This document shows, piece after piece, positions 11,865-57,880 of a stretch of DNA of 64,000 nt (positions are counted from its first letter, which is position 1; each line of letters starts with the position of its first letter). The translations under genes were made by a program, and so were the position numbers. The notes under the pieces are model-generated. The model was not told the DNA's origin. It did no database searches and was given only the letters and a program-made list of their open reading frames with translations. The stretch comes from a bacterium (GTDB lineage: Bacteria; Patescibacteriota; UBA1384; CAILIB01): positions 560,589 through 624,588 of the forward strand of contig JBAXRQ010000001.1 in NCBI GenBank assembly GCA_037131105.1, given 5' to 3'.

Positions 11865-11966
11865 TACGGACCAAAGTCTTCCCGTCTCACTGTCCTCAAA
11901 CCTACATACCCACACGGTACTGCGGAGGCGAGACGATAAAGACCATGGCTCCGTATCCAGGTAGCG

Positions 11967-12548: not shown

Positions 12549-12745
12549 AAGGCGGGGTTAGTGGAAGGGAGATACTGAGCGCAGTTCAAGGAAAAGACGA
12601 GTATCCGACCGAGACGTACTTGAGGTACGGTGAGAAAGGAACGGAGACTTTGACGCAGAAATACGCCAGTACCTGCCTTCCACCGGAATTGACTGTTTCC
12701 AGATTATAGCTTAGCATAACCTCATACAAAACCTAAGTACCGACC

Positions 12746-13297: not shown

Positions 13298-13324
13298 TAC
13301 AAAAATAGGCTAGGGGAGTACTTA

Positions 13325-14144: not shown

Positions 14145-17072
14145 CTATTCCTCCCGTGAGTCAGCCGGATCCGGCCCCCACATAGACATCCCCTCGTTCG
14201 CAGTTTGTTCGGGAAGGGCGAGAGGGTCAGGGGACTCAGCTGCGGCTTTTTGGGCAAGCTCCTTGGCCAGGCGTTTTTGCTCAAGCTTCTCCAAAACCTC
14301 TTTTTCAGGCTCGCCTAAGAACCACTTCAGTCCTCCTTTTTGCGACACCTCCTTGTATACCCACTCATCCAAGACCTTCAAGGGCTTTTCTTTGCGTGGC
14401 GGCTTGGGAACTCCCCCACCCTCCTGCTCCATGGGAACTACGAACGGCTCAGCTACTTCAAGCTGAATAATCTCGTTCGGTTTTTGTTCGTATACTACGG
14501 GAGCCGGTATCGGCTCGGTAACCATAGGTAATGGCACAGGCGTCTCTAGGACGGCTACTGGAGCAGGCGCAAGTGTAGCCACTGGTACAGGCTGAGGAAC
14601 AGGTAGAGGCTGCGGAGCAGGCGCTACCGGCTGCACTGGAGGACTCATCGGAGTCCGGATCGCTAATGACTCCCCGCTCTTCAAGATCTCCTGTGCCACG
14701 TTCTTAGCCTCTTCCACCTCACGCTTCTTCTTGTATCCTGCCGTCTCGTCAATAACCAGCTCCACTTCCTCACGAGGACGAGCGTAACGTTCACGAGAAT
14801 ACTGCATGACCAAATCACGGTTCGACTCCCCTATCTCCTTAGGCATCATGGTCTGGGCCGAGAAGGCAGGAGTGGCGATGCCATCCACCAGCAGCTTCAC
14901 ATAGACATGCCCTCTCTGCAGGTTCACCAGGTCGTTGGCATCAAAGACGGGAGCAAACTCTTTGACCAGCACGTCAGCGTCAGGAGCACCTATCCGAAAG
15001 CTTACCATAGTACCAACATTACCAATGACAGCGTCACGCACAGCCTCTGACATCTGGGCGATGTACTGGTGAGCGATGGTTAGTCCCAGGCCGTACTTAC
15101 GGGCTTCAGAAAGAATGGTAGCAAATGACTCGGTGGCAAAGTTCTGGAACTCATCCACGTACAGGAAGCAGTCAGGCCGCTCAGCCGCAGTTACATTTGC
15201 CCGGCTCATAGCCGCAAGCTGCACCTTGGTGATCATCATGGCACCGAGCAGGGCCATGTTGTCTTCACCTATCTTACCCTTTGACAGGTTTACCACCAGG
15301 ATCTTCTGTTCATCCATGATCTGACGTATATCGATGGACGAGGTAGGCTGCCCAACGATATTTCGCATGGTTGAGGTGGACAGGAACTGGCCGACCTTGT
15401 TCAGGATGGATCCAGGAGCTTCCGCCCGCTGTTGTGGCGACATACTCAGCCACTCATTACTCCAGAAGTCCTTAATAACTACATCCTTGATCTGGGCCAC
15501 TATGGACTCCCGGAAGGCATTGTCAGTGAGCATGCGGGGAATACCCAGCATAGTGGGGTTATCTGAGTCCAAGAGAGCGAGTACTGTATTTCTGAGAATG
15601 TATTCAAGGCGAGGACCCCAGGAATCAGAGTAGAGCTTCTTAAAGATGCCGATGAAGCCCGACGCCACCATCCCCTTGTACTCATCCGCTACCTTCTCAA
15701 GAGGGTTGAAGGAGATCGGGAAGTCACGGTCAGAGGGATCAAAGACCACCACGTCCTTTACCCGGTGAGGCGGCACGCTGTCGATGATCTTGTCGGCCAG
15801 TTCTCCGTGCGGATCCACTACCACAACTCCCCTGCCCTCCATCACATCATCGATGATCATATTCTCAAGCAGGGTGGATTTACCCACACCAGACTTACCA
15901 ATGACGTAGATATGGCGCTTTCGGTCGTCTAGCTTGATACCGAACTCTCGTGAGCTGTTACGGAAGTCGGTCTTACCAAGAACGGTAAGTTCCTTAGGCT
16001 CCACCTCATCCTTGAACGGTAGGTTGAACGGAGCTTCGCCCTTCTTAGAGCCGGCCCAGGAGATAGCCGAGGTCTCTACCGCCTTGGTTGGGAAATGGTA
16101 CAGAGAAGCCAGCTCCTCAATGTTCAGGACGCCGCCCTTCTCCTCAAACTGACGGGTGATGTACTTCGTCCAGGAAGCATGGTCATCGACCAGAGTCGAA
16201 ACCCCCCTGAAGCCGTTGAGGTTGGTGGTGTTGTACTGCTTCAGGGCTGCCAGCATAGCCTGGGAGCGTGACTTGGCGGTCTGGGCCTCGTTGGCGATTA
16301 CAACCAGCCTAAATAAGCTTTCAAAACCTAACTTGGTGATCTTGGTCTCAATCCCCTTCAAAGCGGCCTCTTCAGGCGCAGAAAGCTTCGGGGGCTCCTT
16401 AGGACCGCTTCCGGCCGCGTCCCCTACCCCGGATCCCGGCACCACCATCTCCTGCAGTATGCGGGCACCGAAACGGACCACCTTGGCAGCCGCACCTCCC
16501 CCTCCTCCCATGTCTCCGCTTCGTATGGCCTTTACGTGGGCTACTCCGCGATTCTGCCATTCGTCCCCTACCGGCCGCACTACGATTTGCAGCCAGACCT
16601 GTTCACCCTCATTTAGACCAGCCATTACGGCGGTAATACTTGCCAACGGGTCCACCCCTTCGGAAGCCGTTACTGTCTTGATAGGATACACATCCTCCTT
16701 GGTAAGCTCAATCTTGGTAGTACCCACGTGCTTGCCCTCAAGCTCTACCTGCTTGGTATAGTCAGTCACCTGATGGATCTGCAGGTCGGGATACTGGGCA
16801 TAGAGCTGTCCTTCGATGAAGTCCCTCAAATGTAAAGGCGTGAATACATAAAAGATGATCGAGTCCTTCACCGCCACTATCTCAAAGCTTACGTGCTCCT
16901 GGACAATGGGATCCTCTCGGTAGATGCCGTGCAGCGCTGAGAAGAACTGCTCAGCACTGGCGGCAGTCTTCTCGTTTTCCTTGGCCACTTGGATCGCCAG
17001 CACCACAAAGGTCTGGGACTCCAACCACTCTGCTCGGCGTTTCAGATCATTCGGCTTGGACCATAGGGCCAT
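14145..17072 (-). CDS. FtsK/HerA/VirD4-superfamily ATPase A (975 aa): novel ~390-aa N-terminal domain, Walker A GKSGVGKST, VVVDPHGE, Walker B YVDEFQNF, Pro-rich C-terminal tail
   Basis: Motif order matches type IV coupling-protein/HerA ATPases; paralogous to 17655-20270. Confidence 0.7.
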   Translation of the reverse strand: MALWSKPNDLKRRAEWLESQTFVVLAIQVAKENEKTAASAEQFFSALHGIYREDPIVQEHVSFEIVAVKDSIIFYVFTPLHLRDFIEGQLYAQYPDLQIHQVTDYTKQVELEGKHVGTTKIELTKEDVYPIKTVTASEGVDPLASITAVMAGLNEGEQVWLQIVVRPVGDEWQNRGVAHVKAIRSGDMGGGGGAAAKVVRFGARILQEMVVPGSGVGDAAGSGPKEPPKLSAPEEAALKGIETKITKLGFESLFRLVVIANEAQTAKSRSQAMLAALKQYNTTNLNGFRGVSTLVDDHASWTKYITRQFEEKGGVLNIEELASLYHFPTKAVETSAISWAGSKKGEAPFNLPFKDEVEPKELTVLGKTDFRNSSREFGIKLDDRKRHIYVIGKSGVGKSTLLENMIIDDVMEGRGVVVVDPHGELADKIIDSVPPHRVKDVVVFDPSDRDFPISFNPLEKVADEYKGMVASGFIGIFKKLYSDSWGPRLEYILRNTVLALLDSDNPTMLGIPRMLTDNAFRESIVAQIKDVVIKDFWSNEWLSMSPQQRAEAPGSILNKVGQFLSTSTMRNIVGQPTSSIDIRQIMDEQKILVVNLSKGKIGEDNMALLGAMMITKVQLAAMSRANVTAAERPDCFLYVDEFQNFATESFATILSEARKYGLGLTIAHQYIAQMSEAVRDAVIGNVGTMVSFRIGAPDADVLVKEFAPVFDANDLVNLQRGHVYVKLLVDGIATPAFSAQTMMPKEIGESNRDLVMQYSRERYARPREEVELVIDETAGYKKKREVEEAKNVAQEILKSGESLAIRTPMSPPVQPVAPAPQPLPVPQPVPVATLAPAPVAVLETPVPLPMVTEPIPAPVVYEQKPNEIIQLEVAEPFVVPMEQEGGGVPKPPRKEKPLKVLDEWVYKEVSQKGGLKWFLGEPEKEVLEKLEQKRLAKELAQKAAAESPDPLALPEQTANEGMSMWGPDPADSREE

Positions 17073-17085
17073 GGTTTGGGTTCGA

Positions 17086-17613
17086 TTAAAGCATATTGTC
17101 GATCACCGCCCAACGGGAGGGATGATCGGCGGGAATAAGTAGCATAACCTTGTCTCCCAAATGAAGATTAAAGAGTGACATGTAATAAGTCACTGATGCG
17201 GTCAGGATGCTATAGGTGTTGCCGTCCTCAGCATCCACCACATAGTGGTTACCCTCGGCTCGCAGTACACCTGGAATAGTCGAACGCTCGATGGGGCCAA
17301 GCTGCTTGTAGAAGAACTTGCCATCCGGAGTGATATAGAGCTTAAGCGGATCGCCTTCGACTAGCTTGCTTTTGGAGGCGTAGTTTGAGGAAACCTGGTA
17401 TCCCTTGCCGTTATAGTCAACCATCCTCTCGCCGTCAAAGATACCCTCGATCCCGTCGTCAGTACCAGACTGCTCCTGCAGCGCATAGGTAGGCTGGGCA
17501 GCATAACCAGCCGCTCCTACCCCTAATAGCTGCCGCAGATCACGTATATCCTGCTCGATCCGCTCTAACAGTCGCGCCGCCCGCTCAGCATTTCCATCGG
17601 TATTTGTTTCCAT
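17086..17613 (-). CDS. Hypothetical protein (175 aa) between the two ATPase genes
   Basis: Tightly packed within the operon (13-nt and 41-nt gaps); AAAGG SD. Confidence 0.5.
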   Translation of the reverse strand: METNTDGNAERAARLLERIEQDIRDLRQLLGVGAAGYAAQPTYALQEQSGTDDGIEGIFDGERMVDYNGKGYQVSSNYASKSKLVEGDPLKLYITPDGKFFYKQLGPIERSTIPGVLRAEGNHYVVDAEDGNTYSILTASVTYYMSLFNLHLGDKVMLLIPADHPSRWAVIDNML

Positions 17614-17654
17614 ACCTTTATTTAGTTTTTGATCTTAGGATCACTATATTCTTT

Positions 17655-20270
17655 TCAGACCTGGGGAGCAAGCTGAGGGGCAGGAGCTGGGGCCGGTTCA
17701 GGAGTGGCGGCGGGTACCGGTGCGAGTGGCGTTGAAGCCGTTGGAGCCACAGGAGCGACGGGTGCTGAAAGCCCCTTTGAGCGTAGGCGGATCTCGGACT
17801 CCACCAGCTCGCGGTCACGGCCGTACTTGAGGCGGGACAGCTGCTTGATCGCCTCCCCTACCTGGACGTTCTCGTTAGGGTCCGGCGGATAAGCAGCGGC
17901 ATTGAACGGCTTGGACGGACTTCCGTCGATAAGCATCTTGATGTAGTAGTTGTACTTTTCGGTATTGACCATGTCCTCTATCTCCAGTGGATCAAACTCC
18001 TTCTTAAAGAACTCAGCATCCGAGGCACCGATACGCCAGGTAAGCATAGTACCGACGTTACCGATGACGGCATTTCTCGTATCTTCATCAAGCTGTTCGA
18101 CAAACTGGTTGGTGATATTAAGCGACAGCTGGTACTTACGAGCTTCGGAGAGAATGGTGGCAAAAGTCTTGGACGTGAAGTTCTGGAACTCATCCACATA
18201 GAGATAAAATGGTACTCGTTCTGCCTCGGACTGGTTCTGACGTGAGAATGCGGCGATCTGGATCTTACCTGAGATGATCATACCGAGCAGCTGGGCGTTG
18301 ATATCTCCAAGCAGACCCTTCGGCAAGGTCACCAGGAGGATCTTCTTGCTGTCCATGGCCTCCCGAAAGTTGAAGGCGCTGTTCTGCTGGCCGATGATCG
18401 GCCGCATGATGTCATTGGTGGTGAACTGGGTGAGCTTGGAGGTGATGTACGGCACGATATTAGCAAGAGCCGCCTCTCCCCCAGCCTTTTCAGCCTCGTT
18501 CACCCAGAAGTCGATGACCACCTGGTTGCGGGTCTTGGAGAGTTTCAGCTTGCGGAACTCGGCGTCGGCCAGTACCTTTGGGATCTCCATAAGGGTGCTT
18601 CCCGAGTCAGGGTCGTCCATAACCAGCATCATGGCATTTCGCATGTACTGCTCAAACATAGGTCCTCCGGTGGCCTTCAGGTCATACAGCTTGTCGAAGA
18701 TGGAGATCATCTCGTTGATGACCATGGTCTTCTGCTCTGGATAGCGGGGGTCGAACTCAAGTAGGTTGAAGGCCATGGGGCGGGCGGTATCGGAAGGGTC
18801 AAACAGGATGACGTCCTCGGCCCGCTCCTTGGGAATGTGCTTGAGTATCCACTCGACGGCGTCACCGTTAGGATCCATGTAGCAGACCCCGTGCCCAGCC
18901 CGGATGTCCTGCAGTATCATGTTCTGGAACATAACCGTCTTACCTACACCAGTCTTTCCTATCATGTAGAAGTGGCGAGACCGGTCAGGATAGTTCATAT
19001 AGACCGGGATCTCAGTGCCACGGAAGGCGCTGTAGCCCAGCAATAGACCCGACTTCGGGATGTTGTTAGGAGGTGAAAGCCGGCGGGCACCCAGCCAGTG
19101 GATGTTTGGCGTGTCCAGTACCCGGTTTGGGAAATGGAAGATACTGGCCAGCTCCTCTGTGTTCAAGATAAAGCTAGGCTGGTCCTTGGAGAATAGACGC
19201 AGGATGTAGTCATTACGCAGATGCTGGCTACCGACTGCCGCGGTCTTAAACCCGTTCGACTCAGGCGCCTGATACTGAGAGAAAGCTGAGAGCATGGTCT
19301 GGACGTGGTTCTTAGCCTCAATCTCGGTAGCCGCCCAGGCCACGCAGCGGATCTGTACTTTGAAGCCTACCTTGCTGCCCTTCTCCACCATCAGCTTGGC
19401 TTGCTGCTCCTGCATGGCGGTAAGCCTGACATTAGCCTGGGTGGTGTTACCCGCCTCGTTATGAGTAGGTGCATCAGTCTTCTGGCTGGCCACTGCGGAC
19501 TGACCAACTTCCTTGGCAATATTTCCTACCTTCTGCATATTCGTGGTATGGAAGGATTTGCCCTGCTGCACGTTATGGAGCGCCTCCTCTATCTTATGCT
19601 GCCAGGACTGGTCGGTGGGCTGCACCAGGATCTGAATAGCGCCTCTCCCCTGCCCCATCTTGGATAGTGAGTTGGTCAAGCCATTCAGCGGATCATTCTC
19701 CAGGTTCTTATACGTTCTAATAGGAAATATTTGTTGCTTCATCAGCTGGATACCACCAGAGGCTGTAGCACCACCCTCCTTGATAAAGACGTCGTAATCC
19801 GTAGCCTCCTCGATCTGGGCAGCCGGGTATTGGCCATGGATCTGCCGCTCCACCTGATCCACCGTGTCAGAGGGACAGATAACATAAAAGAAAATCTCAC
19901 CATCATGGGCGGCTAGCTCAAAGGAAAAAGTCGGCTGGCCCTTCAGAAACGTATCAAACCAACTCGAGTCATAGAAATGATGCAGCGATGTGAATACCGC
20001 TTCCATGACGCCCATAATCTCCTTGGGATCACGCCGGTCGTCAGGATTGGCGAGCTGTTTAGGCATTGTCACCCGCAGAGCCCGTGTCTTCAAGGCGCGG
20101 TCTTGGTGCTGCTTGGTACGACGCATATAAATGTAGCGTGCCGCCACAGCCAAGCCGATAAGTAGAACAGCCAGTAGAAAGTCAGTCACTAAAAGTGCCG
20201 CCGTGTTGGTAGTACTGCTACCGCCGTCGGTGTAACTGGTGTCGTAGGTGTAGTCGGTGGTGTCTGCCAT
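17655..20270 (-). CDS. FtsK/HerA/VirD4-superfamily ATPase B (871 aa): N-terminal transmembrane helix, same novel domain, Walker A GKTGVGKT, DPNGD, Walker B YVDEFQNF, Pro/Ala-rich tail
   Basis: Clear paralog of ATPase A (shared blocks EELAS.FHFP, FATILSEARKY, AVIGNVGTM). Confidence 0.7.
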   Translation of the reverse strand: MADTTDYTYDTSYTDGGSSTTNTAALLVTDFLLAVLLIGLAVAARYIYMRRTKQHQDRALKTRALRVTMPKQLANPDDRRDPKEIMGVMEAVFTSLHHFYDSSWFDTFLKGQPTFSFELAAHDGEIFFYVICPSDTVDQVERQIHGQYPAAQIEEATDYDVFIKEGGATASGGIQLMKQQIFPIRTYKNLENDPLNGLTNSLSKMGQGRGAIQILVQPTDQSWQHKIEEALHNVQQGKSFHTTNMQKVGNIAKEVGQSAVASQKTDAPTHNEAGNTTQANVRLTAMQEQQAKLMVEKGSKVGFKVQIRCVAWAATEIEAKNHVQTMLSAFSQYQAPESNGFKTAAVGSQHLRNDYILRLFSKDQPSFILNTEELASIFHFPNRVLDTPNIHWLGARRLSPPNNIPKSGLLLGYSAFRGTEIPVYMNYPDRSRHFYMIGKTGVGKTVMFQNMILQDIRAGHGVCYMDPNGDAVEWILKHIPKERAEDVILFDPSDTARPMAFNLLEFDPRYPEQKTMVINEMISIFDKLYDLKATGGPMFEQYMRNAMMLVMDDPDSGSTLMEIPKVLADAEFRKLKLSKTRNQVVIDFWVNEAEKAGGEAALANIVPYITSKLTQFTTNDIMRPIIGQQNSAFNFREAMDSKKILLVTLPKGLLGDINAQLLGMIISGKIQIAAFSRQNQSEAERVPFYLYVDEFQNFTSKTFATILSEARKYQLSLNITNQFVEQLDEDTRNAVIGNVGTMLTWRIGASDAEFFKKEFDPLEIEDMVNTEKYNYYIKMLIDGSPSKPFNAAAYPPDPNENVQVGEAIKQLSRLKYGRDRELVESEIRLRSKGLSAPVAPVAPTASTPLAPVPAATPEPAPAPAPQLAPQV

Positions 20271-20287
20271 GCCCCTCGGTGGCTTTC

Positions 20288-20665
20288 TTAGGAAGTGGGA
20301 GTATCAGGTCCTGGATTCGCATTCTGGGACGCAAGCAACCGCAGGTTCGCCATGAACTGCGCCCTCTGCGAAAGGGGCATCTTCTCAAAATCCTCCGGAA
20401 GTTCGTGCAGGACAGAAACGACTCCAGGAGAACCTGCCCCGGTGTCACTGCCAGCTACGGCCTCAGGACCAGAATCAGGTGCGAGGGTTACCAGCGCAGT
20501 AGCACCCTCTACCGTACTATTAACCCCATCGACAGGACCCTCAACCTGCGCCGGAATCTGTTCTCCACCTGAAAGCACGGCGGCTTCGGGATTCTGCTGG
20601 TCAATCTGTTGAGTCTGGGCATCACGTAGCGACTCGGGAGTATTTGAACCTGGAAGCTCAGGCAT
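20288..20665 (-). CDS. Hypothetical small acidic protein (125 aa), probably disordered
   Basis: ORF fills the gap between the giant membrane protein and ATPase B; no SD. Confidence 0.35.
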   Translation of the reverse strand: MPELPGSNTPESLRDAQTQQIDQQNPEAAVLSGGEQIPAQVEGPVDGVNSTVEGATALVTLAPDSGPEAVAGSDTGAGSPGVVSVLHELPEDFEKMPLSQRAQFMANLRLLASQNANPGPDTPTS

Positions 20666-20721
20666 GGGATATCCGTTACTAGTTCATATTAAGCATACCA
20701 GCCCGGAGGTAAAGTCGAAAG

Positions 20722-23700
20722 CTATGAAGACCCACCCGGGAGCAGTACATCCTGAAGAGCCTCGTTATTGAGAATATTGGCCATGGCGGCTCCGATCAGG
20801 AGAATGCGGTTTTCCAGTGGGCTTCCGTCTGGGAGTTTTTTGTATCTTTCTCTTGTCGGGGCACTGAGTTGCCTTAGGCGAGTCAGCGCCTCCTTACGGC
20901 CGTCTCCTTCGGTCAGGTTAAGAAGCTCCATGACGCTTTCCCTATCCGCAAAGAAGTCCTCTAGGGCGGCATCATCCGCTGGCATCCCGTCCCCACCATT
21001 AATAAGCTCTTCTAGGTTCTTCTTTATACGATCAGAAAATGCCGGATATTTCTTTTCAGCTTCTGGAGGTGCGGCGCTTCTCAGCCTCAGCTGCAGCCTC
21101 CGCAAGCTATCCATAATAGAAGATGGTCGACTTTCTTCAGTAGAAGGAGTCACAGTCACGGCTGGCGGTTCTTCAGCTGGCGCTGCTTCGACTGTACCCG
21201 GATCAGCAACAGGCGGAGCCTCCAAATCACCCTCGTCCGCTACTGCTTCGATAGGGGCGCCTACGGGCTCCGCAGCAGGAGCCTCAGTCCCTGCACCAGC
21301 ATCCGGATCACCGGGAGCAGCTGGCGGCTCAGTAGTAACGGTCTCTGTACGACCCGCTACGGGATCACTATTATTGGCCTCCTTCTGCATGAACTGACCC
21401 TGTCTCCTTATGGTAAGGTCAAAGGAACGGACCGGCATGCAGCCTTCGGTACCATATGACCGGTCGTTGGCTTCGTTAAAGAGATATCTGCTCCAGTTCT
21501 TCACGAGTGGTACGAAATGCAGGGAAAGGGCCGGACGCCATGGACCCCGGGTATCAGTCGTAGCCGGATCCATAAGGGCCTTATAGGACTGCCTCAGAGC
21601 CTCTTGCCTCTCTAGGCTCGACAGCACCTCGTCATCAACCGCCATGAAGAGCTTCACATTTCCATTGAAGCGATCGTTGAAATCCTCAGGTGCGTTCTCA
21701 CCGAAACGCTTGGCACTACCCTGGTAGTCCCAGATCGCTTCCATTTTACCCCTCACCATGGCAGGTGACTGCTCAGGAGTAAAGGCAAGAAGAAATCTCT
21801 GCTCGTCTTTCGGCCAATCACTCAGGGTTTCAGCTGCTAACCTGAACGCGTCCCTGTGCAGCGGATTCCTAAGCTCGTCCCTGAAGTTCTTGGCCCCCGG
21901 ACCCGCGGCAGACCTGAGGCCATTCTTGTATGCCTCCCAGGAACCAAGCTCGGAGATACTGCCCACCCCATCATCCCCGGCACCGCCATCCTCGATGATC
22001 AGCTCAGTTTTTGTTGAGCGTAGCTTATTTTGAATGTAATACTCTTCAAGCTCGCTGACCTCGTATTTTATGCCGCCGTACCCCACGCTCTCCTCATTCC
22101 CCGCAAAGGGACCTTCGATGTTCAATGGCCGAAGGATTGCGGTGTCGGGGTCAGTCTCATAGTCAGCGTTATTGGGTCCGGACACCAAGTACACGTAATC
22201 AAACATAACAAGGTTTCCCTGTGCCGGCGTATCCATCTGGAAGACCGTTCCAGGCTTCTTCATGAGCTCCTGAAATTCGACCCGACGAGTTTCGCGCTCT
22301 GCAGGTGACAGTCCTGGCTCTGGCCGAACAGGAGCCTCTCTGCCTGCCGGAGGTCGTTCGGTAGGAGGTACTGGTGGTGCAGGTGGCACCGGAGCCTGAG
22401 GTCCCTCAGGCCCTCCGGGACGCGGAGGAGTGGGCGGTACTGGTGGAGCAGGTGGCACAGAAGCCGGCGGTGTCGCCGTTGCTGCCTCGGGCGTAGCAGG
22501 AGGAGCAGGCACAACAGACCCTTCTGGCTGCACTTGGCTGGCATTTCCTACCCCGCCTAGTGAAGTCAGCTCCGACTTGCCGCGAGCAGCGTTCAGGCGG
22601 GTCCTATTGGCCTCACCCATGGTGGCAATACCCTCGGACATGGCAGCGCCCGCCCCGAAGAAAGCCGTAAGCGGAACCGTCTGGGCAAGACTGTCCTTCA
22701 GAAAGGCACCGAAGATCTGCAGGCCACCGACCTCTGAATTATGGAAAAGCTGCAGGCCACGGCCAGTAGTTGCGTCATACATCGCCCCTCCCAGCCGTCT
22801 AGCGGCGTCCACCGCGTCTGTAGTTGCACCATTTCCGGGATATATGGCATGCAAGGTGTTCGGCGACACGTTTATCATGTCCTTCCTCTCAAGGACGAAC
22901 CTGGCCACTTTGTCGTGGGCCCCCTGTATCATCTTGGTCAGATGTCCCCTGGTTGAGTCGTGAGCCACGCTCATGCCGTCCAGCCGCACACCGTCGGCAC
23001 CGTACAGTGAGTTCTGCAGCCCATGCCAGTGATTGATGATGTTGTAGAGGCCACCGGTCAGGCTTCCAGCTGCGCCGCCGATCATTCCCGCCTTATTGAT
23101 CTGCTTGTCAGCCTCTTTCCTGGCCTTCATGAACTCACCGAACTTGGCCAGCTTCTCGTCGGCAGGTGGCTCACCAATATTCTTCAGACGGCTGTCGGTC
23201 GAGTCACGCATGCTGCGGGCAACAAAGCGCAGTAGGTCGGCCTTCTGCTCCTGAGTAGCCTCAGGTGCCGCTTCAGGATTCTCAGTAGTATGAATATAGC
23301 GCTGGGCATACTCAGTTGCCTTGCCGACATTCTCAGTCAGCTCCTGGAAGGCCGACCCTCCCAGAGTAGTGCCGTCTTCTTGCTCCTGGTAGAGCTTCTT
23401 CTCCTTGAAGTGGCGCATGATGCTGCGCCCGGCCATGGCACCGGCAAAGCTCAAGGCCGCCAGAGGTACAGCGGTTCCCATGGAAATGGTAGCCAGTCCT
23501 AACGCTGAAAGCCCCATGCCCACGCCGAGGCCGCCGGCAGTGGTCTTGGCGGTCCGCACTCCATCCTTTATGACCCGCTTCACATAACTTGGCTGTTTGA
23601 GGTTGACGTTTATTTCGGACTGAGGATCAATACCTCCCTGCGAGGAGAAGCTTTCGATATCCACACCGAACTGGTCGCAGGCCTCCTGCAGATTTTTGAA

Positions 23701-24240
23701 GCCTAGGCGGTGCACATACATCTCGCCGGCGATAGAGTCCCAGCCGTACTGCACCAGATCCCTAGCAATGAACAGCAGATCCTCCTCGTCAAGCTCCTCT
23801 CGGCGCTTCAGCTTTTCCTTGAAGCGAGTAAGAATAAGTCGACGGACAAGCTGGCGATGGGCGTCGGCGTCCAGCATTTCAGGCTCAGCCGGTACCTCGA
23901 TCGCCGGGGCAGGAGCTTCTTCAGCCGGAGGAGTTTCAACCAGAGGGGCAATGGCAGGCTCGGCCACAGGGTCAGCGGCAGGGACCTCAGGTTCAGGATC
24001 GGAAGCAGGGACTGGTTCCGGAGCGATAGGCTGCTCTTCACCGTTCAAGTAGAGCTCCTTCAATCGGGCCAGGTCATAGCGCTTATACTCACGCTCACGC
24101 TGGGCCAGCAGCCGTTTCTGCTGCTTGGGCTTATGGACGTTCTCCTCCATAAACTCATTCTTGTACTCGTTAACCCTGTCGGCGAGAGTGCCGGCATTGG
24201 TACGTGCGTTCTGCCATCCTTCCCCCCATGCGACAGCCAT
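20722..24240 (-). CDS. Giant membrane protein (1172 aa) with Gly/Ala-rich transmembrane hairpins, Pro-rich linkers and a C-terminal globular region; possible VirB6/TrbL-like channel or scaffold
   Basis: Hydrophobic G/A-rich segments (GGLGVGMGLSALGLATISMGTAVPLAALSFAGAMAG; GMIGGAAGSLTGGLY; VPLTAFFGAGAAMSEG); start 2 nt from the stop of the upstream ORF. Confidence 0.6.
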   Translation of the reverse strand: MAVAWGEGWQNARTNAGTLADRVNEYKNEFMEENVHKPKQQKRLLAQREREYKRYDLARLKELYLNGEEQPIAPEPVPASDPEPEVPAADPVAEPAIAPLVETPPAEEAPAPAIEVPAEPEMLDADAHRQLVRRLILTRFKEKLKRREELDEEDLLFIARDLVQYGWDSIAGEMYVHRLGFKNLQEACDQFGVDIESFSSQGGIDPQSEINVNLKQPSYVKRVIKDGVRTAKTTAGGLGVGMGLSALGLATISMGTAVPLAALSFAGAMAGRSIMRHFKEKKLYQEQEDGTTLGGSAFQELTENVGKATEYAQRYIHTTENPEAAPEATQEQKADLLRFVARSMRDSTDSRLKNIGEPPADEKLAKFGEFMKARKEADKQINKAGMIGGAAGSLTGGLYNIINHWHGLQNSLYGADGVRLDGMSVAHDSTRGHLTKMIQGAHDKVARFVLERKDMINVSPNTLHAIYPGNGATTDAVDAARRLGGAMYDATTGRGLQLFHNSEVGGLQIFGAFLKDSLAQTVPLTAFFGAGAAMSEGIATMGEANRTRLNAARGKSELTSLGGVGNASQVQPEGSVVPAPPATPEAATATPPASVPPAPPVPPTPPRPGGPEGPQAPVPPAPPVPPTERPPAGREAPVRPEPGLSPAERETRRVEFQELMKKPGTVFQMDTPAQGNLVMFDYVYLVSGPNNADYETDPDTAILRPLNIEGPFAGNEESVGYGGIKYEVSELEEYYIQNKLRSTKTELIIEDGGAGDDGVGSISELGSWEAYKNGLRSAAGPGAKNFRDELRNPLHRDAFRLAAETLSDWPKDEQRFLLAFTPEQSPAMVRGKMEAIWDYQGSAKRFGENAPEDFNDRFNGNVKLFMAVDDEVLSSLERQEALRQSYKALMDPATTDTRGPWRPALSLHFVPLVKNWSRYLFNEANDRSYGTEGCMPVRSFDLTIRRQGQFMQKEANNSDPVAGRTETVTTEPPAAPGDPDAGAGTEAPAAEPVGAPIEAVADEGDLEAPPVADPGTVEAAPAEEPPAVTVTPSTEESRPSSIMDSLRRLQLRLRSAAPPEAEKKYPAFSDRIKKNLEELINGGDGMPADDAALEDFFADRESVMELLNLTEGDGRKEALTRLRQLSAPTRERYKKLPDGSPLENRILLIGAAMANILNNEALQDVLLPGGSS

Positions 24241-24242
24241 AC

Positions 24243-24590
24243 TCAGGCCTCCTGTGGGAGGGCAGTTACGGCGATATCCGGGTCAATAGCGGCCTTGAAG
24301 GTAGCGGCCAGCTCAAATCGGTAGCGCATAGCCTCCTCAGTGATAAGGGCGGCCAGGTCTATCCCCTGCGCCTCGATGTAAGGAATCATGTCGTCGGCGG
24401 AAAGCTCGGAGAAATGATGGCGCTGGTCTTCGGGAAGCATCTCGTAGACGGTGAGATATACCCGTCCCTGGACAGTCTGATTCATGGTCTTGAGCAGCTC
24501 TTCCTTCTCATCCTCAGGCAAGCCCTGCAGACCAAGGAGGGTGAAGAAATCCTCTTCGAGAATATCCTGGAGAGTCAGAGAAAACGACAT
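24243..24590 (-). CDS. Hypothetical small acidic protein (116 aa; start set at MSFSL)
   Basis: ORF coupled to the downstream giant gene; no recognisable motif. Confidence 0.45.
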   Translation of the reverse strand: MSFSLTLQDILEEDFFTLLGLQGLPEDEKEELLKTMNQTVQGRVYLTVYEMLPEDQRHHFSELSADDMIPYIEAQGIDLAALITEEAMRYRFELAATFKAAIDPDIAVTALPQEA

Positions 24591-24710
24591 GGGCAGGCTA
24601 TTAGTTTTCCTTATGATACGCCCGGGAGGGAATGAAGCGCAAGTACACAAAACATCCGGCCCTCTTGTGAGGTACCGGATGCAATGGATGTTCTTGTGCA
24701 GTCACGGCGA

Positions 24711-25766
24711 CTATGCTGTCGCTGGAGCTGCTGTGCCCGGAGGCGGCGTAGGAGCCGGCGTCGGGGCGGGAGTTGTGGTGGCCGGTGTGGCCGGGGTGCC
24801 AGTAGCTGGCGTCGCAGTCGCACCGGTTGTAGCCGGTGGTGCCGTGACGGTCGCTGTGGCCGGCTTCTTGAAAAGCCAGGCCAACGCAACCAGTATCAGG
24901 ATGCCGAGCCCTACCAGTCCCCAGTTTATCTGGATGACGCTGTTGACGCCGCTCCGGATGTCGCTGCCCTGGGCCTTGATCTCGGTTGCCTGCTTCTGGA
25001 TGTCGGTCGCCTGATCCCCGATAGTGGCCAGTGAGGTCAGGAAGTCTTTGTCGTCAACCTCCTGCTTGCTGGCTACTCCGTTGATCGTGGTGACAACCGT
25101 TGCCAGTGTGGCAGTGTTGGCGCTCGTTGAGGCCTGAACCGCCTTCACGCCAGTGGCAATCGCGTCGATCTTCTTACCCAGGCCGTCGAACTTGGCGTCG
25201 GTCCGCTTTTCGGAAGCGGCGACCAGGCCTTTTACGGCGACTAGTGTCACGCCAGACTTGCTCACCCTTCCACCAGTTGCCTTGCGGCTTGCGGCGTGGT
25301 GACGGACAGATCCACCGCTGCGGTGGCGGCGAACACCCCCACCGTGATGGCGGTGATGACGGACCGGAGCAGCAGGGGCAGCCGCGGGTGCGGCGGCCGA
25401 ATGCGTGTCCGGCACGACCTCGGGGGCCGGTTTGGTCTCCGGGTCAGGAGCGGGATCTGGCTCGGTGGCAATGCCACTGTCGCCGTCTTCCACGTCATTG
25501 CCTTCGTCCTCTCCAACCCCGTATTCGGGAGCAGGGGCGGCTTCGGGCAATCCTGCCTGCGGGGCAGGCGGGGCCAGTGCCAGCCGTTCTCCACTCTGGC
25601 CTTCAGGGGCCTTCGGGGCGGAAACGGTTGTTTCAAAGCCCGGGTTCGGCGCCGGGGCGCCTATGCTGGCCTGACTTCTTCCAGTCGAGCTGGTGGACGT
25701 CATATGGACCGCCACACCGAGTACCATGCCGATCGCCAATGCGACGATCACAATTCGATTTTTCAT
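24711..25766 (-). CDS. Membrane protein (351 aa): signal/transmembrane N-terminus, acidic Pro/Ala region, His/Arg-rich patch, coiled segment, C-terminal transmembrane helix and Pro/Thr-rich tail
   Basis: Start MKNRIVIVALAIGMVLG is preceded by AGGAGG; it is the first gene of the operon, behind a consensus promoter. Confidence 0.55.
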   Translation of the reverse strand: MKNRIVIVALAIGMVLGVAVHMTSTSSTGRSQASIGAPAPNPGFETTVSAPKAPEGQSGERLALAPPAPQAGLPEAAPAPEYGVGEDEGNDVEDGDSGIATEPDPAPDPETKPAPEVVPDTHSAAAPAAAPAAPVRHHRHHGGGVRRHRSGGSVRHHAASRKATGGRVSKSGVTLVAVKGLVAASEKRTDAKFDGLGKKIDAIATGVKAVQASTSANTATLATVVTTINGVASKQEVDDKDFLTSLATIGDQATDIQKQATEIKAQGSDIRSGVNSVIQINWGLVGLGILILVALAWLFKKPATATVTAPPATTGATATPATGTPATPATTTPAPTPAPTPPPGTAAPATA

Positions 25767-25821
25767 TTCTACCTCCTGTCGTGATTTGGCTCCCCCTTGT
25801 CGGGTAGCGGACAGTGGCCGC

Positions 25822-25850
25822 ATTAAACCACAAAAACAGCCTTTTGTCAA
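25822..25850 (-). promoter_or_regulatory. Sigma70 promoter TTGACA-17-TTTAAT driving the 24711-14145 operon
   Basis: Minus-strand TTGACA (25845-25850) and TTTAAT (25822-25827) with 17 nt spacing; about 55-nt 5'UTR with AGGAGG. Confidence 0.6.
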
Positions 25851-25876
25851 GGCCCTTAGGCTCTCACAGCCTATTA

Positions 25877-27079
25877 CTATAGACCGAAGGCAGCTCTTAG
25901 CAGTGAGGTCTTGCCACATCGTATGGCATTAGCAAGATGCGAGGTCACTAAGGAAAGCACCGCTACATTATGCAAGGTCAGGATCCGATAGCCCAGCATC
26001 TCGTGCTCCTTTATATAATGGTGCAGACTGGCCCGGGTGAATCCAACCAGATCCTTTGGCAGGGGTCCGAAGCCTACCAACGGGTTGGGATCAGCTGCAA
26101 ACCGGGCATTGTTCAGGTTCCAGCGCTCAAAGGCCAGATTGCCCTGTAGCAATGTGTCGGTATCCCCTTCCCAGAAGGCCCTTACCGTACCCTCGTCCCC
26201 TACCGGTATCCAGACCGCCCCGTGCCGGGCCAGGCGGCTGGGAGAGACGCAGTCATACATGTCTACACCTCTGAGAGTAGCCTCTACCAGATCGGTAGGC
26301 TCGCCCAGCCCCATGAAGTAGCGCGGCTTCTCGAGTGGCAACAGGGAGTTAATAGACTCGACAGCCTGCCACATCTCAGCCTTGCCTTCGCCCACGGAAA
26401 GGCCGCCGATGGCATTTCCAGGGAGATCAAGAGCAGCAACCGCCTCTGCCGACGTACGGTGCAGATCGGTATGGATGCCGCCCTGCACAATGCCAAAGAG
26501 AGCCTGCTTTCCAGGTTCGGACTTCTTCCACTCTTCAGCGCTTCGCTCAAGCCAGCGCATGCTCCGCTCCATCGCCTCCTTGGCCGCTAACGGGTCAGAG
26601 AGGCCATAGACCGGCTGGTCGAAGGCCATTATGATGTCGGCACCCAGGTTACGCTGGATGTCTATGCTCTTTTCAGGGGTAAACAGGTGCTTGGAGCCGT
26701 CCAGGTGTGAATGGAAGGTAATCCCCTCCTCTGCCACGCTTCTTAGAGCGGTCTTCTCGGTACCGGCCATCCCCCGCTCCCCGAGGGAAAACACCTGAAA
26801 ACCTCCACTATCGGTAAGAATAGGACCGTCCCACTGCATAAACTGATGCAGTCCGCCCACTTCCTTCACCAACCCATCGCCAGGCCTGAGGTACATATGG
26901 TAGGTATTGGCCAGGATAACCTGGGATCCAACCTGTGAAAGCTCGGCAGGAGATACGGACTTTACCGCCCCGTGCGTGCCCACTGGCATGAACACAGGAG
27001 TGTTGACCACCCCGTGCGGAGTAGTCAACTGACCTGTACGGGCCTCCCCATCGGTAGCGGTGACAGTGAATTCAAACAT
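25877..27079 (-). CDS. tgt: Queuine tRNA-ribosyltransferase (tRNA-guanine transglycosylase)
   Basis: Tgt signature (FMPVGTHGAVK, ILANTYHMYLRPG) and zinc site C..C..C..H near the C-terminus. Confidence 0.9.
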   Translation of the reverse strand: MFEFTVTATDGEARTGQLTTPHGVVNTPVFMPVGTHGAVKSVSPAELSQVGSQVILANTYHMYLRPGDGLVKEVGGLHQFMQWDGPILTDSGGFQVFSLGERGMAGTEKTALRSVAEEGITFHSHLDGSKHLFTPEKSIDIQRNLGADIIMAFDQPVYGLSDPLAAKEAMERSMRWLERSAEEWKKSEPGKQALFGIVQGGIHTDLHRTSAEAVAALDLPGNAIGGLSVGEGKAEMWQAVESINSLLPLEKPRYFMGLGEPTDLVEATLRGVDMYDCVSPSRLARHGAVWIPVGDEGTVRAFWEGDTDTLLQGNLAFERWNLNNARFAADPNPLVGFGPLPKDLVGFTRASLHHYIKEHEMLGYRILTLHNVAVLSLVTSHLANAIRCGKTSLLRAAFGL

Positions 27080-28324: not shown

Positions 28325-29458
28325 CTAACCACTCTTCTTCCGATACGTAGCTAGACGTACCAGCCAGTAACCCACAAACAACACCAAAGCCGCTGCCAAC
28401 AGTGCCAGCAGAACCGGCCAGCTCAGGCCGACAAGCACTGCCAGGGCGGCCCACCATCTCCTTCGGTTCGGAGTCGCACTCCCCTCAACTGCAACTGCCG
28501 TCATCCCAATGAACAGAATAACCGACAGGCCAAGGAGGTAGTTTGACAAAATGTTCAGCCAAACCCGGATCACCACGTTCGGTACGTTGGTCAGGGTCAC
28601 CGATGGCTGGCCCGTATAACCGACATCGCTCCATTCGCGGGACCTTCCCTGTGAGACCATGCCGATCTTCTTCCAAACCAGATCGTTGGTCTGCTGCCAG
28701 GTCCAGTACGAGACCGCGTTATACCCGCGCGTGCGCTTGCCGAACTCCAGCACTTCGCTGGCCTCAGACAAACCATACGTCTGACCAAGGGGCACTATCG
28801 GCTTCTTGATGCCGTTCTCATGCTCCCAGGCCTTCCACTCTCGGTAGGTCCAGTTGACGGTCTCTTTGACGGACCTCCCCATCGTCCTCCAATACATCTG
28901 GGGCTCAATGAAGTCAGTACCGCCTACCAGGACCTGGTAGGGAAGCGCTCGATGCTTGGAAGGAATGGCATAGGGTGCGAATCCGAGCAGCTTCTGGGGA
29001 CACTTAGTCGTCCTGTAGTCAGAAACTTCACTGACAAGCTGCTCAGTCTCCCCCCACTTTGGTTTGGACTCCATCGGCGTCTCCGTGTTGTACACGTAGC
29101 CATCGACATAGTCGCGGGACAGCCAGTCGCAGATCAGGTGGGCCTCCTCATGCGGATGGTTTGCATGGTTGAAGCCCCAGACGAAAACCTTTATCCCTGC
29201 GGACTGCATGGCCCTGGCAATCTCGGGCACCCGGTCAGCCTCCACGTAAAGCTGGATGCCGTCGTGCACCTTCAGGTAGACATGACCGATGCCGGCCGCC
29301 TTGGCCTGGTTGACCATCTCTGCGGGCGTACCGCACTTGCTGGGCTGCCCGATCCAGATACCGACCCCGATCTGCCTGAGCTGGTCGGATACCGGCGCTG
29401 CCTGGACCATCGAAGTCCAAGCACATACAAACAGTGCTACTATCAAAGAACGTTTCAC
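28325..29458 (-). CDS. Secreted/membrane-anchored putative glycoside hydrolase (TIM-barrel, GH25-lysozyme-like pattern) with a C-terminal transmembrane anchor; start moved to the GTG giving signal peptide MKRSLIVALFVCAWTSMVQAAP
   Basis: SD GAGGGAGCAAGA-GTG and its own consensus promoter; GH25-like spacing of GI..G / AKAAGI..YLKVHDG / AGIKVFVWGFNH blocks; C-terminal hydrophobic stretch plus RKKSG. Confidence 0.5.
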   Translation of the reverse strand: MKRSLIVALFVCAWTSMVQAAPVSDQLRQIGVGIWIGQPSKCGTPAEMVNQAKAAGIGHVYLKVHDGIQLYVEADRVPEIARAMQSAGIKVFVWGFNHANHPHEEAHLICDWLSRDYVDGYVYNTETPMESKPKWGETEQLVSEVSDYRTTKCPQKLLGFAPYAIPSKHRALPYQVLVGGTDFIEPQMYWRTMGRSVKETVNWTYREWKAWEHENGIKKPIVPLGQTYGLSEASEVLEFGKRTRGYNAVSYWTWQQTNDLVWKKIGMVSQGRSREWSDVGYTGQPSVTLTNVPNVVIRVWLNILSNYLLGLSVILFIGMTAVAVEGSATPNRRRWWAALAVLVGLSWPVLLALLAAALVLFVGYWLVRLATYRKKSG

Positions 29459-29489
29459 TCTTGCTCCCTCTAAAATGAAGTGACGCCTT

Positions 29490-29518
29490 ACTATAGGCAG
29501 TTTATCGTCTTCTGTCAA
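29490..29518 (-). promoter_or_regulatory. Sigma70 promoter TTGACA-17-TATAGT for the glycoside-hydrolase-like gene
   Basis: Consensus -35 and near-consensus -10 with 17 nt spacing, immediately downstream of the rplA terminator. Confidence 0.65.
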
Positions 29519-30645: not shown

Positions 30646-31224
30646 TTACGGATGGATGGTCTCCTCCGCAAGAGTGCCTTGCTCGAGCCACTCTACCAGT
30701 TTTGGGACTACTCTGTCAATCGCCTGCTCCACCATCTTGCGCTCATGGGCAGGGAGCGGCTGCAGTACGTACTCGTCGAGCGGCGGCTGGTGCACGCGGT
30801 GCTCAGGATGTTGCTCGTACAGTCCTACTCCAATCTTGACCCGCCAGAACTCATCGGAGCCGGAATGATCCAGGAGCGACTTCAGTCCGTTGTGTCCCCC
30901 ATCCCCGCCTGACTTGCGCACCCGTACCGACCCTGGAGCGATGTATACATCATCAGCAATGACGCAGATGTCCTCAGGAGCCACCCCGAAATACTCTACG
31001 ACTTCGCGTACCGGCCGGCCAGAGGTGTTCATGAACTGAGTTGGCTTAAAAAGCAAAGACTTGGTAGTTCCGCTGCCAATTTCCCAGAGCTCGCCGTCCT
31101 TAAACTGCTTAGCCTTCCCCGCCCCTAGCTTTTTAGCTACAGCATCAAGACAGACGAAACCTATAGTATGACGATCGCGCACGTGCTGTTCCCCGGGATT
31201 TCCCAAACCGATGAGTAGACGCAT
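30646..31224 (-). CDS. pth: Peptidyl-tRNA hydrolase
   Basis: MRLLIGLGNPG...H motif typical of Pth. Confidence 0.9.
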   Translation of the reverse strand: MRLLIGLGNPGEQHVRDRHTIGFVCLDAVAKKLGAGKAKQFKDGELWEIGSGTTKSLLFKPTQFMNTSGRPVREVVEYFGVAPEDICVIADDVYIAPGSVRVRKSGGDGGHNGLKSLLDHSGSDEFWRVKIGVGLYEQHPEHRVHQPPLDEYVLQPLPAHERKMVEQAIDRVVPKLVEWLEQGTLAEETIHP

Positions 31225-32786: not shown

Positions 32787-34673
32787 TTACCGGATGTCCA
32801 GGTTCTCCAGGCTCTTCTTCAGGGCCTTCTTCAGCTTCAGGTAGCGAGCAAGTCCTGCACCTAGTCCAGAAGTGGTTCCTGCTAGTAGCAGGCCAGCTTC
32901 AGGGCCGGTCTTAGGCAACTGAGGCGGAACCGTGACAACTACGGGAGACGGACTTGGGGTCGGGCTATGCGTAGGAGTCGGGGTAGCGGTAGGAACTGGG
33001 GTCGGAGTAGGAGTCGGACTTGGGGTAGGCGTAGGTGTTGGCGTAGGCTTCGGGGTAGCTGTTGGCGTGGGGGTAGGGGTAGCCGTAGGCTTGGGAGTAG
33101 GAGTCGGGGTGGGCTTTGGCGTAGGTGTAGGCGTGGCCGTAGGGGTAGGCTTCGGAGTCGGGGTTGGGGTCGGCTTCGGGGTAGGAGTCGGAGTAGCCGT
33201 AGGTGTTGGGGCAGGCGTAGGAGTAGGAATGACACAGGCAGGCAGGATAGCCGTAGCAGTGTCGCTCTTCTCTCCGGTTCCGTTGGCCTTGATGAAGGCG
33301 GTGTTCACCGCAGTGGTCTGAGCCACGAGACAACGAACCTGAACCTTCAGGGTAATCGTCTTACCATGACCGGGGTCAAAGGTGGTCAGGATAATACCTC
33401 CCTTGAAGAAGGCGTCCTGTACCGGCTGAGACTGAACCGCGTTGTCGATGGTCAGACTGTTAGGCACATAGGTGGCACCGGTAGGCAGCACGTCACGCAG
33501 GGTAGGATTCACAGCGGTAGTGTTGCCAGTGTTACCGACCAAGATACGGTAGGTCAGGGTCTGGTTAGGGTTAATCAGTCCGATAGAGTCTACGTAGGCA
33601 CCGGTAGCGGGGTTCTGAACGTCCTTTACGACGGTCAGACCGCGGGTGCAGGAAATCAAGGTGGTAGCATCGTCAGAGGCCTTTACAGCGCCCTGGTATA
33701 CGATCTGAGCCTTGTCGACAACGGTTACGTCGGCACCACAGTTCGAAGGCGCAATGGCCTCAAACTGGATACGCTGGTATCCGCCGGTATGAGGCTCCAG
33801 GCTGGAGAACACATAGCCGCCGTTCACGATGGCATTACCCGAGATAGGGGTACCGTTCGTGTTGTTCTGGTTGGTCAAGAGAGCGTTGCCAGCATAGGTG
33901 AACCCAGCAGGCAGCACGTTCTTCAACGAGACATTGTTGGCAGTAGTATTACCGGTGTTCAGGATGGTCATACGATAGGCCACCTTGTCACCAGGAGCGA
34001 TGATAGCAGTAGCGGCATCGTACCAGATATCATAGCCGAGACTCATGTCACGGACCTCATTCTTCACGCTGAATGAGGTTACCGGAGTACCGTACCGGGT
34101 AACGGTATAGGATACCGGATTGGTGACAGCGCTTACCCCGTCAAACGAAGAGGTAGCGGTATTGGTATAGGTAGTCTGGCCAACCGAGAACTGGTCGTCA
34201 GAAGCAAGGCGAGCCTTGAACTGAAGATACAGGGCAGCGTTTGGCTGAGGAGCCATGTCAACGAAGGCCCAGCCAAGGTCATGACCGTTGTTCTTAATGC
34301 TCATGTAGCTATCCGAAAGCGGATAGTCATGGTCCTTGTTATCGCTGCCCTTTACCCGTACGAACGAGCTGTTAGGGGTATAGGTCAGACGAGAGTCAAG
34401 GTGCTCTACGATCTTCGGGTGGGCGCCGTTAGCGTCACCGGTGTTCTCAAGGAGTACGCGGAACGCCAGCGAGTCACCAGGAGTAGCCTGGGCACTGGAA
34501 GCATACTCGGACTGCCCGCCGGACAGCTGTACGGCAAGCCTGGTGTTGATCTGGGGACCAGAGGTCGCAATGACCGACTGCATACCCATGAAGCCAAGGG
34601 CCAGGGCGGAAGCAGCCACCACAAAGCGGGTGCCGAATCGTCCCATGGATGTAAGGAGTGAACTTTGTGTCAT
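32787..34673 (-). CDS. Cell-wall-anchored surface protein: signal peptide, DUF11-type repeat domains, Pro/Thr-rich stalk, LPKTG sortase motif plus hydrophobic segment plus basic tail
   Basis: C-terminal [31 protein letters not shown] is a canonical LPXTG sorting signal; ~100-aa (PTPT/PKPT)n linker. Confidence 0.7.
32932..33235 (-). repeat. Degenerate tandem DNA repeats (GGNGTNGGN-type units) encoding the Pro/Thr-rich stalk of the LPXTG protein
   Basis: Visible periodic gtaggngtnggngt units on the plus strand; explains the Gly/Val shadow ORFs on the opposite strand. Confidence 0.6.
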
Positions 34674-57874: not shown

Positions 57875-57880
57875 CGACTC

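Follow-up and report, generated by a model that had tools for sequence, protein, structure and literature searches.

A rapidly diverging, putative envelope protein in a conserved gene slot beside a VirB4/VirD4-like ATPase operon of Patescibacteria

In Patescibacteria, the loci for type IV secretion systems (T4SSs) contain arrays of VirB2-like pilins that share about 25% identity within arrays, and a survey of these bacteria found about two VirD4-like proteins per genome, encoded mostly away from virB4 and with an unresolved role (PMC12102498). In streptococci, Ser/Thr-rich disordered regions are present in the extracytoplasmic part of membrane proteins (PMC12041528). In this work we analyzed a gene located at 24711..25766 (minus strand) of a 64,000-nucleotide stretch of Patescibacteria DNA (contig JBAXRQ010000001.1, positions 560,589 to 624,588; hereafter the window), between tgt and an operon encoding two type-IV-secretion-like ATPases. 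This gene is real and encodes an exported, membrane-tethered and mostly disordered protein. The explanation that we favor, with middling confidence, is that its product is a strongly expressed, exported, C-terminally anchored and rapidly diverging envelope protein, specific to its lineage and produced from a transcription unit of its own.

We collected nine related loci spanning the interval from tgt to the gene of a DUF5663-like protein, using TGT and close ATPase homologues to find them. A protein is encoded in this interval, here called the slot, in eight of the nine loci:

L003: 213 residues
L004: 303 residues, preceded by two extra genes
L164: empty; 90 nucleotides separate tgt from the DUF5663 gene, and the whole operon is present
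L165: 266 residues, of which the public gene call kept only the last 120
L167: 173 residues, plus a 262-residue protein with one N-terminal transmembrane (TM) helix
L169: 252 residues
L171: 242 residues, plus a 155-residue protein
L172: C-terminal fragment only, at the contig end
L173: 360 residues

Six of the slot proteins combine a signal-like segment at the N-terminus with a TM anchor at the C-terminus; the N-terminus of the L167 protein is cut, and in that of L169 only the C-terminal TM segment passed the hydropathy threshold. The full-length counterparts share a signal-like N-terminus, an ectodomain of 120-300 residues rich in low-complexity stretches and helices, and one C-terminal TM helix. 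Their tails all begin with Lys or Arg, and in four of them an AXA-type signal peptide site was read by eye (AVA/Q, ASA/Q, ARA/Q and AFA/D, where the slash marks the cut). As for the sequences themselves, an all-against-all BLAST comparison of seven slot proteins, that of the window included and that of L173 left aside, revealed no significant similarity, and a Pfam family was found for none of the slot proteins. For these genomes the identity is 66-68% for the ATPase, 57-59% for the 175-residue protein of the operon and 61-62% for TGT, whereas the target has none.

In L004 the two extra genes (11203..13322) lie between tgt and the slot promoter and encode a coiled-coil protein of 608 residues and a protein of 98 residues. 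In L165 (5313..6203) the full open reading frame (ORF), which includes a signal peptide, starts at about 5403 and leaves no 590-nucleotide gap after tgt. Loci with more distant ATPases (35-46% identical) had different gene contexts and were unusable for the slot comparison; those proteins with two TM segments near the distant ATPases that were checked turned out to be LPxTG surface proteins or unrelated. True LPxTG proteins, which do not look like the target, are encoded close to related ATPases of L132, L138 and L155. An iterated hidden Markov model for DUF5663, run over 80 metagenome loci, found only five members.

The regulatory elements that surround the slot gene are conserved as well. 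In the window they are arranged as follows:

25822..25850, minus strand: promoter, with the -35 box TTGACA (25850..25845), a 17-nucleotide spacer ending in TGG and the -10 box TTTAAT (25827..25822); from the sequence and a pattern count
25772..25777, minus strand: Shine-Dalgarno sequence AGGAGG, 5 nucleotides before the ATG
24711..25766, minus strand: coding sequence of the target, 351 residues plus the stop codon; from the ORF list and its translation
24645..24682, minus strand: intrinsic terminator, a GC-rich hairpin of 13 pairs (24682..24652) followed by TTTGTGT; from its fold energy
24613..24642, minus strand: promoter-like site TTGCGC, 18 nucleotides, TATCAT, before the ATG of the DUF5663 gene (24590); read by eye

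The promoter combines a consensus -35 box with an extended -10 box and overlaps a weak terminator-like hairpin 3' of tgt. The pattern TTGACA-N13-15-TGnTWnnnT has four matches in the window, against 0.03 expected, and an equivalent promoter is located upstream of the slot gene in six relatives (L004, L165, L167, L169, L171 and L173), in which TTGAC, TG and the final T are invariant; in L004 it stands directly before the 303-residue gene and not before the two extra genes. The window sites of this class are located at 8784..8812 (plus strand), 25822..25850 (minus), 30690..30719 (minus) and 45807..45835 (plus); one of them precedes rplA and another the target gene. The terminator hairpin has a folding energy of -34 kcal/mol (z = -3.97), a value that none of 200 shuffled sequences reached, and was missed by a consensus scanner owing to a bulge. 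Terminators made of a hairpin and a T-run are present 3' of the slot gene in L003, L004, L165, L167, L169, L171 and L173, that is, in seven of the seven relatives with one, and there is no such terminator in L164, which lacks the slot gene. After the terminators of L165, L169 and L173 there are sites (TTGCAT/TTGTTT-17/18-TATACT) similar to the TTGCGC-18-TATCAT of the window, which may be the promoter of the next unit. As both a promoter and an intrinsic terminator belong to the target alone, it is by sequence a separate transcription unit, from which read-through is possible, and not the first cistron of the ATPase operon; the initial annotation, which regarded it as the promoter-proximal gene of that operon, was not borne out on this point, in view of the strong terminator after its stop codon and of the separate promoter-like site before the next gene. 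The unit, which also has a strong ribosome-binding site, is probably highly expressed. The 5' untranslated regions of the slot genes all contain GC-rich hairpins, among which no common structure was seen, and an Rfam scan of 24500..26000 gave no match.

The coordinates of the gene were borne out, as it is a minus-strand ORF with AGGAGG (25777..25772) located 5 nucleotides upstream of the start ATG at 25766. There is also an in-frame ATG at 25919, but the ORF of 402 residues that it opens would run over both the promoter and the 3' end of tgt (25877..27079), and 25766 is therefore the right start. The reading frame is intact and its GC content at third codon positions (GC3), 0.67, is typical for the genes of this genome. 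The identical protein is called on three public contigs, one of which measures 391 kb; the DNA of both other public copies matches the contig with 100% identity, which leaves no strain variation to compare. The neighboring genes of the target correspond to NCBI WCO52_03150 to WCO52_03170. A DUF5663 protein (P0125) encoded on a 7.3-kb contig of the Joint Genome Institute differs by one residue from the window copy (99% identical), which shows that another metagenome contains a near-identical strain.

The translation contains the signal-like N-terminus, the acidic Pro/Ala region, the basic patch, the coiled segment and the C-terminal TM helix that the initial annotation had listed:

25695..25766, minus strand: residues 1-24, MKNR plus a hydrophobic stretch of 18-20 residues; from hydropathy and the AXA-type signal peptides of the counterparts
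25365..25694, minus strand: residues 25-134, disordered and Pro/Ala-rich with an acidic block; from composition and an AlphaFold2 (AF2) model without secondary structure here, with a predicted local distance difference test (pLDDT) score below 50
25272..25364, minus strand: residues 135-165, His/Arg patch VRHHRHHGGGVRRHRSGGSVRHHAASRKATG; from translation and composition
24924..25271, minus strand: residues 166-281, alpha-helical region; from AF2 secondary structure and heptad periodicity
24870..24923, minus strand: residues 282-299, TM helix WGLVGLGILILVALAWLF; from hydropathy
24714..24869, minus strand: residues 300-351, KK and then a Pro/Thr/Ala low-complexity tail, predicted cytoplasmic; from flanking charge and the counterparts

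The hydrophobic N-terminal segment comprises residues 4-24, after MKNR, and residues 1-24 are predicted to be either a Sec signal peptide or an uncleaved signal anchor. Within the disordered region, the acidic block (residues 75-121) has 15 acidic residues and one basic residue, for a net charge of -14. Low complexity extends over about 60% of the protein, the DNA under these parts containing only short two-copy repeats; residues 166-281 have a normal composition and are not of low complexity. The AF2 model, made from the single sequence with a pLDDT of 49, has helices at residues 2-24, 170-185, 194-211, 218-234 and 240-299, and the remainder is disordered. Six heptads occupy residues 240-281, their a positions being F/I/I/I/I/V and their d positions L/A/A/G/V, and the helix continues from them into the TM segment without a break; this periodicity is significant, its best period being 3.5 and only 0.15% of shuffles reaching the observed power. 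In the DNA, a tandem period of 21 nucleotides is present at 24968..25013.

The initial annotation had also placed the Pro/Thr tail outside the cell; signal-peptide logic and the KK pair directly after the TM helix predict instead a cytoplasmic tail. The AXA-type signal peptides of the counterparts and their tails starting with K or R lead to the middle of the protein being outside and the tail inside, and the N-terminus of the window protein is positively charged. It is thus likely, though by no means secure, that residues 25-281 are located outside and the Pro/Thr tail inside. Hydropathy, flanking charges and the counterparts all agree with a Sec-exported type I, that is, C-terminally anchored, membrane protein.

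At the His/Arg patch (PVRHHRHHGGGVRRHRSGGSVRHHAASRK; VRHHRHHGGGVRRHRSGGSVRHHAASRK), residues 135-176 have a net charge of +10 and contain 10 Arg/Lys, 7 His and no acidic residue. Among 58 proteins of the window, no other stretch of 30 residues is as rich in His or as basic as the patch. Part of it is a short codon repeat. Conservation of the basic patch in orthologues, which had been proposed as a way to tell it from neutral drift, was found only in part: HHRHH is absent from the counterparts, while a basic block after an acidic one recurs in five or six of the eight. This recurring block is Arg-rich and sometimes contains His. In 20-residue windows, the order acidic then basic was seen in the window protein, in L003, L004, L165 and the 173-residue protein of L167, and weakly in L173. 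In the L165 protein both SRHRYRGGSGHRTSNSRR and SRHRYRGGSGHRTSNSRRATASK stand after AAAPAAPAAP, an arrangement that resembles the AAAPAAAPAAP...RHRSGGSVRHHAASRKAT of the window protein, but the BLAST match to L165 is not significant (E = 0.53). L169 has THTADHYYHTNTRTR, L003 has TRPRQIARRQRN, and L171 is extremely Arg-rich. The His-containing stretches of L165 (SRHRYRGGSGHR) and L169 are only partial His/Arg stretches, and the ectodomains of several counterparts, including L003, L171 and L173, have few or no His residues. As HHRHH is not conserved and the block order is recurrent, the patch, judged from these sequences, is a compositional feature rather than a motif, and is neither a conserved motif nor clearly the result of pure drift.

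The target has no detectable relatives in the libraries that we searched. Word-indexed searches of 5.8 billion proteins, using the whole protein and residues 160-302, found no homologue; the candidate list of the whole-protein search was saturated at 8000 entries, probably by low-complexity words. An exhaustive HMMER search of 1.84 billion representatives with residues 160-302 gave three matches, all compositional, which were rejected because they consisted of multiple short matches to YATEQWV...SHQSL repeat proteins resembling phage fibres. No match to the target was found in Pfam (at E <= 0.1), PHROGs, PADLOC or the PDB sequences. In NCBIfam, the IcmG/DotF profile (NF038218) scored 13.9 bits (E = 0.033) against a cut-off of 200 and covered the TM helix and tail only; nothing else was found there, VirB8 included. 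A Foldseek comparison of the AF2 model, which is of low confidence, with the PDB returned only generic helical bundles (E >= 0.8). The likeness to VirB8 or VirB10 that had been suggested for the coiled segment did not hold, with no match in Pfam or NCBIfam, helices without strands in the low-confidence model, and no fold match. For a VirB8 (Pfam PF04335) or PrgL-like protein there was neither a profile match nor an NTF2-like alpha+beta domain in the helix-only model (residues 170-299). For VirB10/TrbI (Pfam PF03743) there was no profile match and no predicted beta structure, and at the C-terminal end the target has a TM helix and then a low-complexity tail; a Pro/Ala-rich segment follows its N-terminal hydrophobic segment, and the comparison with the Pro-rich segment after the VirB10/TrbI anchor is one of composition only. 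We also discarded a sortase-anchored LPXTG protein, as no LPXTG-like motif precedes the TM helix and 50 residues follow it. Close relatives may be under-represented in the protein libraries, in which those less than 50% identical would still be seen.

These results suggest the following picture of the target as a lineage-specific envelope protein. Its N-terminal hydrophobic segment would direct export through Sec and would then be cleaved or kept as an anchor. About 250 residues would lie outside the membrane, with the acidic, disordered Pro/Ala block at the free end, followed by the His/Arg block and by a helix of about 115 residues whose last six heptads may continue into the single C-terminal TM helix; heptads that continue into a TM helix suggest a parallel coiled-coil stalk and hence an oligomer. 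The Pro/Thr/Ala tail of 50 residues is expected on the cytoplasmic side. The blocks of opposite charge would most likely make non-specific electrostatic contacts, candidate partners being the anionic polymers of the wall, polymers of the host surface, or each other. What the slot maintains is a promoter, an export signal, an anchor in the membrane and a terminator, and the sequence can otherwise vary freely. Fast sequence turnover is usual for exposed disordered proteins. Such a pattern points to a lineage-specific surface protein, outside the core of the ATPase machine. A core role is also disfavored by the promoter and terminator that set the gene apart, by the absence of a slot gene in L164 and by the complete lack of conservation next to well-conserved ATPases.

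Several points weigh against this explanation. The signal peptide of the window protein is atypical, with a long hydrophobic core and GVA/V or SQA/S as its sole candidate cleavage sites. Topology was read from simple rules (hydropathy and flanking charge), and the AF2 model of the single sequence is of such low confidence that its secondary structure alone was used. A Pro/Thr tail of 50 residues inside the cytoplasm is unusual, and L173 (3108..4190) and L004 (13502..14413) have a comparable Pro/Thr/Ala linker outside, before the C-terminal TM helix, whereas the compositionally similar stretch of the window protein (24714..24869) is located after it. The representative library returned no self-match, and the target sequence is absent from the cluster look-up collection, yet present on three contigs. 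Finally, the slot gene keeps its adjacency to the ATPase operon in eight of the nine loci, so a functional link is possible.

The window is chromosomal, as it harbors housekeeping genes (rplA, rplJ, rplL, tgt, secDF, tRNA synthetases, topA) and a type IV pilus cluster. The best TGT matches, at 61-62% identity, come from two metagenome-assembled genomes, one of Patescibacteria and one of Saccharibacteria. The target does adjoin a type-IV-secretion-like ATPase operon. This conserved operon (14145..24590, minus strand) lies downstream of the target on the same strand, and its synteny between tgt and secDF extends to every close relative. Starting from the target, its products are:

DUF5663 protein, 115 residues
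protein of 1172 residues
protein of 125 residues
ATPase of 871 residues
protein of 175 residues
ATPase of 975 residues

The membrane protein of 1172 residues contains hydrophobic segments rich in Gly, as well as a Pro-rich stretch. In each ATPase an N-terminal TM segment is combined with a DUF8128 region and a TraD/TrwB-like motor. An AF2 model of the first, 871-residue ATPase, based on 43 sequences (pLDDT 82), matches the full-length TrwK/VirB4 of R388 (E = 2.7e-15), and its motor domain matches TrwB, HerA, Cag-beta and DotL. No profile match to a relaxase, VirB2, VirB3 or VirB6 was seen in the operon, which is probably one of the VirD4-like loci that reside away from virB4.

Between rplA and rplJ there is an ORF (28325..29518, minus strand) of 397 residues, 377 as called, with a hydrophobic N-terminus, weak glycosyl-hydrolase-like matches and C-terminal TM helices; L164, L165 and L171 have no gene at this place and L167 has one of 237 residues, which suggests a second variable slot inside the ribosomal-protein region. 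The type IV pilus cluster (53263..63976, minus strand) encodes a prepilin peptidase, a PilC-like T2SSF protein, a T2SSE ATPase and a pilin-like protein with an N-terminal methylation motif. A protein of 628 residues with DUF11/CLIPPER-type repeats (32787..34673, minus strand) is probably a surface protein, and a relative of its gene precedes prfA in L171.

Alternatively, the target might serve the VirB4/VirD4-like ATPase machine next to it as an accessory subunit that spans the envelope, in the manner of a VirB10/TonB-like or stalk-like connector whose TM helix and cytoplasmic tail touch the membrane ATPases while the Pro-rich ectodomain reaches through the wall. TonB and VirB10 have a Pro-rich segment with acidic and then basic parts, as the target does; moreover, both ATPases of the operon are membrane-anchored and belong to the VirB4/TrwB/HerA superfamily, and the slot gene keeps the same orientation and its place directly upstream of the operon in eight of nine loci. 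This adjacency alone is weak evidence, since rplJL, tgt, the operon and secDF are all syntenic. The target also has its own promoter and a strong terminator, the operon having a separate promoter-like site; the operon is complete in L164, where the slot is empty; the target sequence is not conserved while the ATPases are 65-76% identical; and a beta-barrel or NTF2-like domain is lacking, as are VirB8 and TrbI profile matches. We therefore consider such a subunit unlikely. Another view, that the gene is a drifting or recently arisen low-complexity ORF without specific function, tolerated as harmless, seems quite unlikely too. It agrees with the absence of homologues, the low complexity of about 60% of the protein, a slot that can be empty (L164) and the variation of slot content and length, from 173 to 360 residues, but not with a promoter, signal peptide, TM anchor and terminator that are kept across genomes whose ATPases are only 65-72% identical, nor with a promoter of the strongest class of the window, an intact frame and genome-typical GC3. 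Besides, an expressed gene of no use would be expected to disappear from a reduced genome of about 1 Mb.

A binding function at the cell surface was raised by the initial annotation, and the His/Arg patch might be a site for a divalent metal (Ni, Zn or Cu, through HHxHH) or for nucleic acid, e.g., for the capture of DNA for uptake by a nucleotide-dependent epibiont. The 7 His and 10 Arg/Lys in about 40 residues are unique within the window, basic blocks recur in the counterparts, with His stretches in L165 and L169, and the neighboring ATPases resemble DNA translocases. We find this idea very doubtful, given that HHRHH is not conserved, that the ectodomains of L003, L171 and L173 have few or no His, that the L165 match is not significant, that no metal- or nucleic-acid-binding family was matched in Pfam or NCBIfam, and that the patch is partly a short codon repeat. 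An equally slim chance is left to a bolder proposal, in which the slot of these epibiotic Patescibacteria would be a highly expressed cassette site dedicated to a hypervariable protein for host contact or specificity, working with the adjacent twin VirB4/VirD4-like translocase, which is specific to Patescibacteria; as part of the same proposal, a coiled-coil stalk would present disordered arms with charge blocks that bind host envelope polymers or extracellular DNA. If this were true, the sequence turnover would reflect an arms race with hosts or phages.

Under the explanation that we prefer, a lineage-specific envelope protein, what is mildly interesting about the locus is that an expression slot is conserved, next to an equally conserved VirB4/VirD4-like operon, and its content runs free. 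Although these genomes have only about 1 Mb, they keep the slot, and of its product they preserve no more than the export and the anchoring. If the product is an abundant surface protein, it would be a candidate for what determines contact with the host in this uncultured epibiont lineage, and a useful marker of strain-level surface variation.

Compared with the systems described so far, the target is similar to VirB10 and TonB in being a membrane-anchored protein with an extended Pro-rich segment that has acidic and basic parts, encoded beside T4SS-like ATPase genes. However, VirB10 and TonB have an N-terminal TM segment and a conserved globular C-terminal domain (a beta-barrel in VirB10, the TonB C-terminal domain in the other), and the target has no such domain; it is anchored at its C-terminal end, carries the Pro-rich part at the free N-terminal end and gives no profile match. 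With VirB8, PrgL and TraM it shares the character of a bitopic membrane protein near T4SS-like ATPases, but VirB8-type proteins consist of an N-terminal TM segment and an NTF2-like alpha+beta domain, whereas the folded part of the target is predicted, in a low-confidence model, to be helical and without strands. The VirB2-like arrays are a conceptual parallel within the same phylum, as they also involve fast-diverging, Sec-exported envelope proteins beside conserved secretion ATPases (PMC12102498); VirB2-like pilins, in contrast, are small proteins with two hydrophobic helices and a recognizable profile, while the target has 351 residues, is mostly disordered, matches no pilin profile and is located beside a different ATPase locus. 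Low-complexity segments on exported, membrane-anchored proteins of single-membrane bacteria are likewise found in the Ser/Thr-rich regions of streptococci (PMC12041528) and in the Pro/Thr linkers that span the wall of Gram-positive bacteria, whose surface proteins the target resembles in composition only. The linkers of L173 and L004, outside and before the TM helix, are like the Gram-positive ones, whereas the Pro/Thr segment of the target follows the TM helix and is predicted to be cytoplasmic, and the target lacks the LPXTG sorting signal of sortase-anchored Gram-positive proteins. A His-rich metal-binding protein of the Hpn, HypB or SlyD-tail type would be expected to bind metal and to have a His cluster shared by its orthologues; the His cluster of the target is not conserved as a motif, with partial His/Arg stretches in L165 and L169. 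The target is thus unusual in its composition, but we consider it to be of a fairly ordinary kind, namely a lineage-specific, fast-evolving, low-complexity envelope protein.

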